Shown here: positions 4,862-61,771 of the stretch, piece by piece
How the letters are laid out: every line of letters starts with the position of its first letter
Position numbering within the stretch: the first letter of the stretch is position 1
Assembly: GCA_964440805.1 (NCBI GenBank)
Contig: CAYTTR010000009.1
Coordinates: 1,658-65,657, forward strand
Source of the DNA: an uncultured Eubacteriales bacterium
GTDB lineage: Bacteria; Acidobacteriota; Aminicenantia; Aminicenantales; Aminicenantaceae
Reading direction: 5' to 3'
DNA length: 64,000 nt
Translations under genes and position numbers: made by a program
Notes under the pieces: generated by a model
What the model was told of the DNA's origin: nothing
The model's input: the letters and a program-made list of their open reading frames with translations, nothing else
Database searches by the model: none

Positions 4862-5200
4862 ATCACATTTCAGTCTATTCCGTCTATCTGGTCTATTTGG
4901 TCTATTTGGTCTATTTGGTCTATTTAGTCTGGATAGGGCAAGACAAGAGAGAAAAGCGAGACGAGCGAGAAAGAGAAGCGTTACTTGCGTTTATTGAGTT
5001 ACTTGCGTTCTTTGTGAGCGACCGTAGGGAGCGTGGCGATCCCAAATTCGTCCGGGAAGGGAAAAGAGAGGCGTTTCATTCTGCCTTTCCCGGTTTATTA
5101 GTAGATTGCCGCGTCACTCGGCTACGCCTCGTTCCTCGCAATGACGGAGCGTCATTTTCATTGCTTGAGTGTGGTAAGCTTGACATGGGGAATTAGCTTG
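4862..5200. repeat. repeat-rich GC-elevated intergenic element, family copy A (5x GGTCTATTT tandem repeat, purine-rich GCGAG block, duplicated GTTACTTGCGTT motif)
   Basis: Tandem 9-mers at 4885-4930; shares ordered blocks (gtctattc ... gcgag/gaagag ... gcgtt-act-tgcgtt) with 6588-6790 and, inverted, 25025-25397. Confidence 0.4.
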
Positions 5201-5329: not shown

Positions 5330-6586
5330 ATGAACGAAGTTGGAAAACAACTGGATTACCTCAAAAAAGGATGTGTGGATATCATTCAGGAAGAAGAATT
5401 CAAGTCAAAAATTGAGAATTCTTTGAAAGAAAAGACACCTTTGCGGATTAAGGCAGGATTTGATCCCACTGCTCCTGATATCCATTTAGGTCATACCGTC
5501 TTGATCCGTAAAATGAAACACTTTCAGGATTTTGGCCATGATGTAATTTTTCTCATTGGTGATTTCACCGGACTAATCGGAGATCCTTCCGGAAGATCTG
5601 CGACAAGGCCGGCTATGACCAGGGAACAAATAAATGAAAACGCCGAAACTTACAAAGAACAGATCTTCAAGATTCTGGATCCAGATAAAACTATAATTGA
5701 TTTCAACTCCCGCTGGCTGGCAAAATTGACAAGCTTTGATATTATCAATCTGTCTGCCAAGTATACAGTTGCCCGGCTTCTGGAAAGGGATGATTTTTCC
5801 AGAAGACTAAAAAACGGCCTTCCCATCTCAGTTCATGAACTTCTTTACCCTTTAATGCAAGCCTATGATTCAGTAGCCCTGAAGGCAGATGTGGAGCTGG
5901 GAGGCACTGACCAGAAATTCAACCTGCTGGTAGGAAGAGAGATTCAAAGGGAATTCGGCCAGGAACCTCAGGTAGTAATGACCATGCCTCTTTTAGAAGG
6001 ACTTAACGGAGTTGAAAAAATGAGCAAGTCACTCCAGAATTATGTGGGAATCACTGAAGCTCCTGAAGAAATGTTCGGTAAATTAATGTCTATTTCCGAT
6101 GAATTAATGTTCCGTTATTACGAACTTCTGACAGACATACCCCTTTCTCAAATAGAACAATTGAAAGCTGATATTCAAAAGGGAAAGGTTAACCCCCGCG
6201 ACCTCAAAACCGGGCTGGCCCGGACTATTGTGGCCGATTTCTGGGGAAAGAAAAAAGCCGAGGAAGCCCGGATGGAATTCGACCGGGTGTTCAAACATAA
6301 AGAGATCCCTTCAGAAGTAAAAGAAATACCGGTCAGCCAACCGGTATACCCTTTGGTGAATCTATTGGTGGAAGAAAAAATCCTGCCTTCCAGGGGAGAA
6401 GCCAAACGGCTGATCCGGCAAGGAGGGATTTACTTAGATGGACAGAGGGTCGATGATATCGACATCAAAATAGAACTTAAGACCAAAAAGGAAACTATTC
6501 TCAGGATTGGAAAAAGAAAATTCTTCAAACTGGTTTTTGGGGACGTTCCCCAAAGGGACACCCCTTTCCCTGAAGAAAAACAATAA
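5330..6586 (+). CDS. tyrS: tyrosine--tRNA ligase TyrS
   Basis: 418 aa; class I HIGH (HLGH) and KMSKS motifs; C-terminal S4 domain; last ~15 codons are encoded by a REP-like repeat. Confidence 0.9.
6539..6570 (+). repeat. REP-like dispersed element copy 1 (GGGGACGTTCCCCAAAGGGACACCCC) inside tyrS 3' end
   Basis: Near-identical 26-mer also at 61738-61771, variant at 29883-29914 and reverse-complement tandem at 29995-30033. Confidence 0.5.
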
Positions 6587-6587
6587 T

Positions 6588-6790
6588 AGAGTCTGTTCAG
6601 TCTATTCAGTTGATTAAATGAAGAGGAGCATGGCGAGCAGGAAGAGTTTATAGCGTTTACTGCGTTTTTTGCGTCAGTAGCATTTATTTACTTTTATCTG
6701 GTTTGTTTAGTTTATCCACTCAATCTGGTTTGTCTGGTATAACTTGGTGAAAGAGGCAAGGCTGGCAAAAAAAATGAGACTAAATAAACA
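6588..6790. repeat. repeat-rich intergenic element, family copy B
   Basis: Contains AATCAACTGAATAGACTGAACAGACT (reverse complement; 24/25 identity to 25336-25360), GCGTTTACTGCGTT, GGTTTGTCTGG and AGGCAAGGCTGGC blocks shared with copies A and C. Confidence 0.4.
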
Positions 6791-6816: not shown

Positions 6817-8295
6817 TCAATAAGGAGGAGGGAAAAACTTTGGTTTTCGGCCGAAAATCTTTTTATATATTTGAGGATAAGCATCCTTTCCTCCAATTAG
6901 AAGACAGGTAAGAGGAAGTACTTTTTCTGCCTCTGCCCTCATTTTCCCCGCAATATTCCGGATATCCCACTGAGCTGTAGCGTCTTCCCTGAGGCGTGAG
7001 ATATGATACAGTTCTCTGGCATTTACCTTTAAAAGAACCCTTCTACGATGAGCATTAGTCAGGATATATGAGGCTCCATTTTCAAGGCACCGATTGAGTT
7101 CTTCATAAACCTCATCCGTTTTCCGGATAACTTCGAGAAATTGCTTTTCTTCCCCGATTTCCTTGACGGAAGGAGGCACAATTACTCCAAGCGAGGGATC
7201 ATATTCCTGAACCGTCAAGGTAGCCATTCTATGCCTTTTAAGCTGGGCAAAGCAGGCTGCTGAGACCACAAGTTCAAAGGTCAGATCTATAAACTCCCAT
7301 TCCCTAAGAGCCGCATCATAAAACTCCATATGGCGGAAGGCCGTTTTTACGAGATCCATTTTCTCATCACGGCTTATTTTTTTTACCCGATCTAAACACT
7401 CTCCATATGACGCCTTTAAGGCAGAAAGAAGAAGAGCTGCCAGTAGTTTTTCATCTCCATCCGGAGTAAAGTCAATCAGGCGGACATCTTCTCGACTTGG
7501 ATTTTCTCCATGAATTAAATCTTTGGCTTTATTCTTTAAGTCTTCAGGCGTTTGGGCATCAAAATCACTGGCCTCTGTGAAAAGAATAATAGAGGGAGCA
7601 ACTTCCTTGGCCAATTGATATATATTCCGGTTAAGCTCAGCCAGTTCAATTAGTTTTTTGGCTGCCATTCGTCGGATAAAATATTCCAAATTGCGGGCAT
7701 TGAGAGTCATCCCCAATTGCCCCAGAGTAGCAAGACAGACAGCATAGCGGGCATCTTCTTTGGCCCAACCTTCCAAAAGAGAATGTTTTTTTGGATTTTC
7801 AGCCAAGTCTTTATGGCATTGGAAAATAAAAGGCCTGAGTTTCTTATAAAGCCTGAAATAGAGATCGTTTTGCAGCTTAACCGTCTTTAGGAAAATACTT
7901 TCCTTGCCCGCCTTTTTGACTTCTTCCGGCAGGAGAAAATCACCTTGTAAAGTGATGTATCGTTGTGATTTCTCAGTATATGAACCAAGCCTGAATCGCT
8001 CGATTTCTTCAATAGCCAACCGGCTGACACCGATTATATCAAAGTTAAATACTGCATGTTCAGCTACTGAATGATGTCCCATTTTGAAAATTATATTCCG
8101 GTTGGAACGCCTGGCCCTTTCCACTTCTTCTCTGGCAATTTTTCTTAACCGGTCGACCGGCCGGGGATCCCGGGAAATCCGGGCATAAGCAGCAGAAAGG
8201 GTTTCCGGAGTTACATCATCACGTGAAGGAGAATTTTTTTTCAGTTCCTTTAGGACTTGGGCATCAACATTATAACCTGCTAAGATGACTTTCAT
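6817..8295 (-). CDS. thyX: FAD-dependent thymidylate synthase ThyX-like, tandem two-domain form
   Basis: Two ThyX-like halves. Domain 1: HHSVAEHAVFNF...RFRLGSYTEKSQRY (RHR replaced by RFR, Ser retained) and NARNLEYF. Domain 2: RHRMATLTVQEY (RHR retained, Ser lost) and NARELY...AQWDIRNIA. Start chosen at the second ATG (AGAGAGAA SD) rather than track 8334. Confidence 0.55.
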   Translation of the reverse strand: MKVILAGYNVDAQVLKELKKNSPSRDDVTPETLSAAYARISRDPRPVDRLRKIAREEVERARRSNRNIIFKMGHHSVAEHAVFNFDIIGVSRLAIEEIERFRLGSYTEKSQRYITLQGDFLLPEEVKKAGKESIFLKTVKLQNDLYFRLYKKLRPFIFQCHKDLAENPKKHSLLEGWAKEDARYAVCLATLGQLGMTLNARNLEYFIRRMAAKKLIELAELNRNIYQLAKEVAPSIILFTEASDFDAQTPEDLKNKAKDLIHGENPSREDVRLIDFTPDGDEKLLAALLLSALKASYGECLDRVKKISRDEKMDLVKTAFRHMEFYDAALREWEFIDLTFELVVSAACFAQLKRHRMATLTVQEYDPSLGVIVPPSVKEIGEEKQFLEVIRKTDEVYEELNRCLENGASYILTNAHRRRVLLKVNARELYHISRLREDATAQWDIRNIAGKMRAEAEKVLPLTCLLIGGKDAYPQIYKKIFGRKPKFFPPPY

Positions 8296-8432
8296 GGTTC
8301 TCTCTACAATAAAAAGAGGCTGAAAAAATGTCAATATAACAACCTGTTCATTAAATATTTATTTTGAGTTAATCACATTATAGAAAAAACTAAATAAATT
8401 TTTCCTTGATTTTTTATTTTATTAATCCTATA

Positions 8433-29882: not shown

Positions 29883-30033
29883 GGGGACTTTCCCCAAAGG
29901 GACACCTCTTCCCCAAGACATTTAAATTTTTTTTGTTCCTATCTTTTAATAATAATTGATCGTAAGGATAATAAATCTAATTCTCTTCTGGAAAGGGTGT
30001 CCTTTTAGGGAACGCCCTTTAGGGAACGTCCCC
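29883..30033. repeat. inverted pair of REP-like elements (copy 2 forward at 29883-29914; tandem reverse-complement copy 3 at 29995-30033) flanking an AT-rich 80-bp spacer
   Basis: GGGGACTTTCCCCAAAGGGACACCTCTTCCCC versus GGGTGTCCTTTTAGGGAACGCCCTTTAGGGAACGTCCCC; same family as 6539-6570 and 61738-61771. Confidence 0.5.
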
Positions 30034-30034
30034 T

Positions 30035-31372
<1,338 letters not shown>

Positions 31373-60659: not shown

Positions 60660-61734
60660 GAAATCTCTTCCTTCTGATATCAAAAGACCTCAGAAGAAGA
60701 TGGAAAAACCCGGCCGTAATCATTGGATTCATGTTAATTCCCGTTGTCTTTACTTTTATTTTTGGGGCTGTCTTCGGAAAGGAAGTTGAAAAGAGCTTAA
60801 CTCAGAAAAATATTTGATTGAGGAAATTGATTCTGAAGAAAAAGTCAGATCTCGTGTTCTTATTATTCCTGAAGGATTTTCTGATAGAGTTAAGACTGGA
60901 GAAAAAACAAATCTTACCATAAAAAGGCATCCTGATAGCGATCCTCAATATTCACAAGCTGCTTATTCCCACGTGTTGAAGGCCATCATCAAGACGATCA
61001 CGGGACTTGTTGGATCAGTTCAATTAGCAGAAGAGAAAGATGAATCTCAGGGTATTGAAGAGATTTTTTTGAGTTACCAGCCGCAACGATTAATCACTCT
61101 TCGCTCCGAACTGGCAACTCCCAGAAAAGCCATTCCTTCGGGCTATAACCACACCATCCCGGCTATGACCGTTATGTTCATCCTTTTTACTGTCCTTATG
61201 TACGGAGGAATCACCTTGCTTGAAGAAAGAAGACAAGGACAACTTGAACGAATAGTGATCAATCCAATCTCCTTCTCTCTTCTGTTAGCTGGAAAATGGC
61301 TGAGCCGATTTCCTCTGGGAATGTTCCAACTAACAGTGCTCTTTCTTGCAGGATACCTTCTTTTCGACTTTAACCTGGGCTCTTCCCTTTTTTCTGTACT
61401 GTTGATATCCCTATTTTTCTGTAGGGCCATAGCCGGACTTAGCTTGCTTATGGGAAGCCCTTTTGAAAAAGAAGAGCTTTTAGTGGTTGTCAGTATCCTC
61501 TTGGCCAACCTGATGGCCGGATTGGGAGGATGCTGGTGGCCTCTTGAATTAGTTCCACCTGCCATGAAAACCGTGGGCTTATTCTTTCCCACTGGCTGGG
61601 CAATGGAAGCTTTTCACAAGTTGATATTCTTTGGAGAATCATTAACTGGAGTAAAGACTCATATCCTGGTCTTAAGCGGATTCGCCTTGGTTTTTCTTAC
61701 TCTGGCTGTCAAATTTTTCCGCTGGAAAAAATAA
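60657..61734 (+). pseudogene. ABC-2 type permease disrupted by frameshift (TM1 fragment 60657-60815; remainder 60814-61734 in a different frame)
   Basis: N-terminal TM1 ORF ends at TGA 60813-60815; a downstream ORF in another frame carries the extracytoplasmic loop and five TM helices. Confidence 0.5.
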
Positions 61735-61737
61735 AAA

Positions 61738-61771
61738 GGGGGGACGTTCCCCAAAGGGACACCCCCTCCCC
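61738..61771 (+). repeat. REP-like dispersed element copy 4 (GGGGGGACGTTCCCCAAAGGGACACCCCCTCCCC)
   Basis: Sits 4 nt after the ABC permease stop; matches 6539-6564 exactly over the core. Confidence 0.5.

Follow-up and report, generated by a model that had tools for sequence, protein, structure and literature searches.

The tyrS reading frame and its C-terminal extension

The 64-kb window (the whole stretch of DNA analysed here) carries a tyrS reading frame of 418 aa at 5330-6586 (+), and the encoded TyrS matches the Pfam families PF00579 (tRNA-synt_1b, residues 34-321), PF22421 (SYY_C-terminal, residues 328-399) and PF01479 (S4, residues 342-378). The domains of the enzyme (catalytic and SYY C-terminal/S4) extend to about residue 399-401, all Pfam matches being over by residue 399, and residues 404-418 form a new tail outside all recognised domains. 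As every Pfam domain of TyrS ends before this tail, an effect on the enzyme would not be expected from the sequence. The first part of the tail, residues 404-412 (GDVPQRDTP), is encoded by an exact copy of a 26-mer, GGGGACGTTCCCCAAAGGGACACCCC, located in sense orientation at 6539-6564 (+); the repeat starts exactly at codon 404 and supplies GDVPQRDT and the first two bases of P412. The remaining residues 413-418 (FPEEKQ) derive from the 22 nt 3' of the repeat (6565-6586, +). This stretch was presumably once the 3' end of tyrS with its UTR and is now translated in another frame, in which the presumed ancestral TGA (6571-6573) is no longer read and TAA at 6584-6586 is the stop in use. Deletion of exactly 6539-6564 in silico led to a 405-aa ORF ending in KLVFFP at TGA 6571-6573, corresponding to a gain of 13 residues in the extended form (418 aa vs 405 aa). 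The bypass of this TGA can be explained by a frame shift, because 26 is not a multiple of 3 (26 = 27 − 1).

A preliminary description of this DNA had proposed that an insertion replaced the native stop of tyrS, and had suggested that TyrS be aligned with its orthologs. We compared TyrS with its best 120 homologs, all of them from Aminicenantes/Acidobacteriota-type metagenome bins. Among these, the 418-aa form with the tail was observed only in P0002 (98% identical), and 118 of the 120 lack the tail; the remaining homologs are mostly 401-413 aa long, with a few up to 426 aa, and all end 2-10 residues past a KRKFFKL-type motif. P0002 belongs to an independent assembly, GCA_048622495.1 (locus L010), in which the same insertion is accompanied by nearby SNPs and a 9-nt indel relative to the window. 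The closest tail-less ortholog (86% identical, locus L009) has 405 aa and ends in KLTYKK, and no copy of the 26-mer was detected across the 7.2 kb of this locus. Together with the 405 aa restored by removal of 26 nt, these comparisons support the proposed replacement of the native stop.

The exact pre-insertion sequence of tyrS is a reconstruction: the intergenic DNA of the 86% ortholog differs from that of the window by 36 nt in length, not 26, and an in-frame gain of 39 nt would likewise yield a 405-aa ancestor of TyrS. A 26-nt event is preferred, as sharp boundaries at 26 nt are seen for the element everywhere else, and the reconstructed empty site at the end of tyrS would then read GTTTTT directly followed by TTTCCCTGA. 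In the simplest reading the insertion, common to two close genomes and absent from the 86% relative, was tolerated and is probably neutral.

A terminator and promoter scan at tyrS gave no match, with no T-run terminator detected, and the tyrS-context region analysed as RNA showed no excess structure (z 0.09). Tandem repeats of similar 9-nt units flank the gene, with 6.4 copies of GTCTATTTG upstream (4873-4930) and 2.3 copies of AGTCTATTC downstream (6590-6610), the window having one more copy of the latter unit than the 98% sister L010. Convergent with tyrS, an ORF of 505 aa at 6817-8334 (-) belongs to the Thy1 (ThyX) family, as PF02511 was matched on its 492-aa orthologs in L009 and L010. A length of 505 aa is about twice that usual for ThyX, and the ORF may represent a duplicated or fused ThyX.

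Further copies of the 26-mer in the window

A second exact copy of the 26-mer is located at 61740-61765 (+), 5 nt past the TAA (61732-61734) of an ABC-2 permease ORF (60814-61734); it is a singlet, with no inverted partner within 300 nt. Matches to the 26-mer were obtained in none of 100 dinucleotide-preserving shuffles of the window. A third copy with two mismatches was found at 29883-29908 (+), and half-motif searches led to a degenerate copy at 29995-30033 (-), which reads GGGGACGTTCCCTAAAGGGCGTTCCCTAAAAGGACACCC and consists of one 26-nt unit with a 13-nt internal duplication. The latter is in sense to purA and begins 1 nt past the purA stop (30035-30037), and the copy at 29883-29908 is its inverted partner across an 86-nt spacer, with no gene before it on its own strand. 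Both form a tail-to-tail inverted, REPIN/BIME-like doublet (29883-30033, -) between purA and a nifU-like gene, and the four sites in 64 kb amount to a density of about one per 16 kb. The copies had already been noticed in the preliminary description, with a range of 61738-61771 that brackets the second exact copy and with variants at 29883-29914 and 29995-30033, where both were located again. Its statement that the three copies outside tyrS lie just downstream of stop codons is true for those at 61740 (5 nt) and 30033 (-) (1 nt) but not for that at 29883 (+), which is the distal arm of the inverted pair downstream of purA.

The minimum-energy fold of the 26-mer as DNA consists of two mini-hairpins (5 bp and 3-4 bp). 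These are the two small hairpins described before, though they are not clearly more stable than the folds of shuffled sequences (z -0.9 to -1.5). The singlet is only weakly palindromic compared to shuffles (z -0.5 to -1.5), whereas the inverted doublet, as RNA read from purA, forms a long hairpin of -59.5 kcal/mol (z -4.66), with none of 200 shuffles as stable. Rfam searches of the whole window at gathering thresholds and of the surroundings of the copies at E-value thresholds led to chance-level matches only. The variant copy GGGGACTTTCCCC (29883-29894) includes GGGACTTTCC, the consensus site of NF-kB in eukaryotes. The resemblance is coincidental and biologically meaningless here, and could cause false motif matches.

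A sharply bounded repeat family

When one genome per species was scanned, the exact 26-mer was detected on eight contigs with unrelated flanks, the MAG labels being Deltaproteobacteria (three contigs of one MAG), Omnitrophota, Desulfaltia, Eubacteriales, Aminicenantes and 'archaeon'. The copy on the contig labelled 'uncultured archaeon' (CAYGBE010000100.1, L007:5068-5093) lies 3 nt past the end of an ORF, and NCBIfam scans of the ORFs on this contig and on the 'Eubacteriales' one (L005) gave no taxonomic marker for or against the labels. A metagenome scan with one degenerate position led to at least 120 contigs, and a scan of viral contigs for the 26-mer to 0 matches, with nothing indicating phage. 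With up to four mismatches allowed, 131 contigs yielded a family of at least 191 copies (176 with unique flanks), and the GC content of the contigs ranges from 34 to 63%; in one genome (MAG210) six copies with up to three mismatches are found on three contigs in about 20 kb of sequence.

The commonest form of the family ends in ACACCCT. Counted position by position, conservation drops sharply on either side of the 26 nt, with flank information of about 0 bits, a weak A/T preference at -5 to -2, T at +1 and a weak family-wide consensus T-G-A-T-T-A-T in the positions after the element. An all-against-all comparison of the flanks for a longer master element recovered only the partner repeat and orthologous loci. 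The tetranucleotide GTAG, conserved at one end of the palindrome in classical group 2/3 REPs, is absent from both strands of the 26-mer. The sequence appeared in no paper when the literature was searched in full text with the 24-nt core of either strand, and no Rfam family was found for it.

At three unrelated loci (L011:9679-9720, L081:36-75 and L128:5166-5205) the same ~14 nt (TGATTATGTCAACT / ATATTATGTCAACT) directly follow the repeat, which may mark a longer sub-family of the element. Tandem arrays with a period of 110 bp were observed at L107:892-1137 and L099:6464-6709, where the 26-nt repeat alternates with an 84-nt spacer conserved between the units and the L099 array is closed by an inverted copy; both look like tandem amplification of a composite unit and not like a CRISPR-type array.

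Inverted copies flank a Y1/HUH transposase gene

A gene for a Y1/HUH transposase of ~195 aa is found between inverted pairs of the repeat in at least seven loci. Doublets of the 26-mer about 790 bp apart enclose an ORF of 194-196 aa at L004 (a Deltaproteobacteria MAG), L021, L054 and L068, and at L131, L132, L133 and L134 four more distant homologs of the transposase (57-65% identical) are flanked by inverted variant repeats of 25-27 nt. All of these variants, e.g. GGGACGTTCCCCAAAGTGCCACCCT and GGGGACGTCCTTTAAAGTACCACCCT, have the outer block GGGGACGT and the inner block CACCCT in common and differ in the middle. The repeat is identical in 26 of 26 positions even where the flanked transposases are as low as ~52% identical (L004 vs L021).

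The transposase matched Pfam Y1_Tnp (PF01797) above cut-off with E 1e-17 to 1e-14, and its best NCBIfam model was REP_Tyr_transpos (NF047646), with 59.4 and 71.9 bits below the curated cut-off of 80; the transposases are a divergent clade. The HUH histidines H60 and H62 and the tyrosine Y120 (RYIERNP motif) are invariant in alignments of 4 and 27 sequences, and in an alignment of 39 sequences H60 and Y120 are invariant and H62 is nearly so. A sequence search of the PDB with one transposase gave no match and a search with a profile gave weak matches (E ~0.03), so that a fold search was needed to place the protein. An AlphaFold (AF2) model calculated from the 39 sequences (pLDDT 89.8) found its best PDB match by Foldseek in 4ER8, the E. 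coli TnpA_REP with its REP hairpin (E 2.4e-8; TM 0.61/0.72; 155 columns at about 17% identity), ahead of the IS608, ISDra2 and IS200 transposases. The family comprises 2645 proteins at E ≤ 1e-10, many of them labelled Omnitrophota, and tblastn detected no gene for such a 'REP-associated tyrosine transposase' (RAYT) in the 64-kb window.

The element had been called REP-like (REP, repetitive extragenic palindrome) from the sequence of the window, and this name has gained substance from the inverted 26-mers and close variants around a Y1/HUH gene elsewhere and from a predicted fold that best matches TnpA_REP. On both grounds, repeat and transposase are assigned to a REP/RAYT system.

REPs at stop codons and as C-terminal codons

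Placement relative to genes was counted with crude ORF calls (at least 80 aa), and as a control we used the mirror image, i.e. an antisense gene approaching the 3' end of the element. A gene on the sense strand stops 0-10 nt before the element for 31 of 121 copies (antisense control 5/127) and reads into or through it for 20 of 121 (control 3/127), and with the range widened to -66 to +30 nt relative to the 5' end of the element, a sense gene ends there for 64/121 copies, compared with 16/127 in the control. The stops preceding the REPs are mostly TAA, not TGA. Among the 149 copies with 250 nt of sequence on both sides, an inverted partner within 250 nt was found downstream for 59 and upstream for none, so doublets are always tail-to-tail, with the GGGGACG ends outward, and their spacers of 4-186 bp are mostly unrelated between loci. 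The identity of flanks with k = 2-5 was no higher than in shuffled pairings, hence no target-site duplication was detected, in line with the expectation for HUH/Y1 transposition. A weak A/T target preference combined with purifying selection elsewhere may account for the closeness to stop codons, and so may a co-opted role at mRNA 3' ends.

We were interested whether other proteins also end in codons of the repeat, and surveyed ORFs of at least 150 aa. The last codons are derived from a REP in methionyl-tRNA formyltransferase (Fmt, ending in GDVPQRDTP), an amidase (LGTFPKGTP), an APH/M23/aminotransferase fusion of 1033 aa (GDVPKRDTHDPDA) and an NAD-dependent epimerase/dehydratase (RGRSQKGHP). 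Several unannotated ORFs likewise end in REP codons, one of them translating two tandem copies: at L089:362-427 (-) two REPs 14 nt apart are translated at the end of a 214-aa ORF, leading to a REP-derived tail of 28 residues. All three reading frames of the REP are used for such C-termini, and another five REPs contribute their first G as the last base of a TAG stop codon. A copy inside a reading frame, regarded as unusual in the preliminary description, is thus contradicted as an exception by the recurrent REP-encoded C-termini (the 20 of 121 copies above; Fmt, the amidase, the epimerase and others); the tyrS tail is a recurrent property of the repeat family and a fairly ordinary event, not an oddity. 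REPs downstream of ORFs, REPs that overlap ORF ends or supply their stop codons, and REPs inside known genes have been reported (Di Nocera et al., 2013, PMC3733652), and in the section of PMC12306157 that cites Liang et al. 2015 a large share of E. coli REPs is placed within 15 nt of a stop codon, where they are able to stall terminating ribosomes.

Proposed insertion at tyrS and alternative explanations

From the boundaries of the repeat, its placement and the transposase between its inverted copies, it is most likely, at a probability of roughly 85%, that the 26-mer is the REP of a REP/RAYT system and was inserted in sense two codons before the stop of tyrS, with a shift of frame that made TyrS 13 residues longer. 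The REP would not be autonomous: a small HUH/Y1 RAYT, presumably encoded elsewhere in the host genome and outside the 64 kb, most likely copies it in trans on single-stranded DNA. This enzyme would recognise the 26-mer as ssDNA, the probable determinants being the invariant GGGGACGT and CACCCT blocks in the role that GTAG has in classical REPs, and by analogy to the family cleavage and rejoining would proceed through a 5'-phosphotyrosine intermediate without target duplication. A single REP copy would have entered in sense two codons before the tyrS stop in the lineage of the window, and translation would since then pass the old TGA (6571-6573) and continue through the repeat and 22 further bases to TAA. 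Mobilisation of the repeat by the transposase is inferred. To our knowledge, RAYT-driven transposition of REPs in vivo has not been demonstrated for any system. Cleavage and strand transfer have been reported in vitro only (PMC8266576).

The strict sense orientation and tight stop-codon closeness might also be explained if the 26-mer were conserved as a regulatory element in cis or as an RNA element, acting as terminator, mRNA stabiliser, ribosome-stalling or protein-binding site, and had been selected in place past stops without being mobile, with the tyrS tail as a by-product. The very stable hairpin of the purA doublet would agree with such a role, and so would the possible stalling of ribosomes by REPs up to 15 nt from a stop, as described in PMC12306157 where Liang 2015 is cited. 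Local evolution at each site, however, could not produce identical 26 nt between unrelated flanks in hosts of 34-63% GC, no T-run terminator is present at tyrS, an Rfam family was not found, the singlet is without significant structure, and the element flanks a transposase gene, all of which makes a purely local element improbable. A secondary, co-opted role of the REP may be compatible with the evidence for mobility. Even less probable is a MITE mobilised by a DDE-type transposase, of which the copies would form the terminal inverted repeats, with singlets as solo ends: about 40% of the copies are indeed in inverted pairs with the GGGGACG ends outward, but the spacers, between 4 and 186 bp long, mostly show no relation from locus to locus, target-site duplication is not above chance, and the sole gene found repeatedly between the pairs encodes a Y1/HUH transposase and not a DDE enzyme. 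The origin of the window from a metagenome-assembled genome and the dependence of the tail on a frameshift-type event could finally raise the suspicion that the extended tyrS frame is an assembly or sequencing artefact, or a decaying gene. We give this hardly any credence, as all TyrS domains are intact with strong Pfam scores, and as the independent GCA_048622495.1 has the same insertion and tail along with its own SNPs and 9-nt indel nearby, so that the insertion is not an artefact of assembly.

Uptake sequences, dif/Xer-like sites, CRISPR repeats and a SECIS-like recoding signal were considered as well and dropped once the association with the transposase appeared. The 26-mer lacks a dyad of 11-bp arms and was not seen in arrays with unique spacers, and the stops before the REPs are mostly TAA and not TGA.

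A REP insertion as the origin of the tyrS tail would explain the odd C-terminus of TyrS by a recent event and not by a new domain or an annotation error. Beyond tyrS, it is conceivable, though in our view somewhat doubtful, that one REP/RAYT system with a nearly invariant, GTAG-less 26-nt REP is common to several phyla of uncultured anaerobes (by MAG labels Aminicenantes, Omnitrophota, Desulfobacterota/'Deltaproteobacteria', an Eubacteriales-labelled MAG and possibly an archaeon), with insertions aimed at, or surviving only around, stop codons and about one copy in six rewriting a C-terminus or stop. If true, this would be an unusually conserved, stop-codon-proximal class of REPs spreading between phyla, unlike the mostly vertical and lineage-specific picture of REPIN/RAYT systems. 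As neither a paper with the sequence nor an Rfam family was found, we regard the REP as previously undescribed, and together with its transposase clade it is defined here in poorly studied sediment phyla. The ~190 copies provide examples of repeats placed nearly on top of stop codons that regularly serve as the last codons of real enzymes, and a near-identical REP across hosts of differing GC content and taxonomy, despite diverged transposases, offers a data set on recognition by RAYTs and on the inter-phylum movement of REP/RAYT systems.

Comparison with known systems

REPs in general are sequences of 20-40 nt able to form a stem-loop, dispersed at tens to hundreds of sites per genome, mainly outside genes and past ORFs where neighbouring genes are unidirectional or convergent, and their RAYTs are single-copy genes that are inherited vertically. 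Translation of a repeat inside otherwise conserved proteins is also seen for the Rickettsia palindromic elements (RPEs), which measure 100-150 bp and are inserted in frame within ORFs. We know of no transposase for RPEs. In contrast to them, the element described here has 26 nt, shifts the frame and touches the extreme C-terminus only. The IS200/IS605 TnpA and its minimal derivatives (PATEs) have the same HUH/Y1 catalytic fold, ssDNA chemistry and lack of target duplication in common with the present system, but their left and right ends differ and the transposase gene moves in many copies, whereas here identical inverted 26-mers are found and it is the 26-mer that is dispersed.

The GTAG- and CGTC-tagged REP superfamilies (Di Nocera et al., 2013, PMC3733652) are similar in their intragenic REPs, the overlap with ORF ends and the supply of stops, and RAYT genes flanked by non-GTAG inverted repeats, one group of them in Acidobacteria, were described in the same work. 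Positions 4-7 of the 26-mer read GACG (CGTC on the opposite strand), but this tetranucleotide is part of hairpin 1 instead of an unpaired tag at the terminus, and unlike the CGTC families the 26-mer has neither an 8-9-bp stem nor a CCA tail; moreover, CGTC families were reported without a dedicated transposase (PMC3733652), while the 26-mer family has one. With the Pseudomonas REPINs (Bertels and Rainey, 2011, PMC3116915; PMC3337134) it has in common that inverted REPs form a long hairpin, that the repeats are RAYT-associated and that singlets and doublets coexist. REPIN spacers are short and conserved, the doublet being the replicating unit, whereas the spacers here, 4-186 bp long, mostly have no relation to each other. 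Because of these variable and unrelated spacers, the single 26-mer looks like the unit of spread, or the doublets look as if they arose secondarily. [quoted passage not shown]

The closest resemblance in predicted transposase fold is to the REP/BIME elements of E. coli and TnpA_REP (4ER8; PMC8266576, PMC3479197). Differences to E. coli are the lack of GTAG and the two mini-hairpins instead of one long imperfect stem in the repeat, a transposase of ~195 aa with an extra C-terminal helical region and very weak sequence similarity to TnpA_REP, and hosts from uncultured sediment phyla (Aminicenantes, Omnitrophota, Desulfobacterota and similar). Both systems nevertheless have a short repeat dispersed past genes, often a few nt from the stop, inverted doublets, and a single small HUH/Y1 gene between inverted copies, and this arrangement, with inverted REPs on either side of a RAYT gene, defines a REPtron (PMC8266576).
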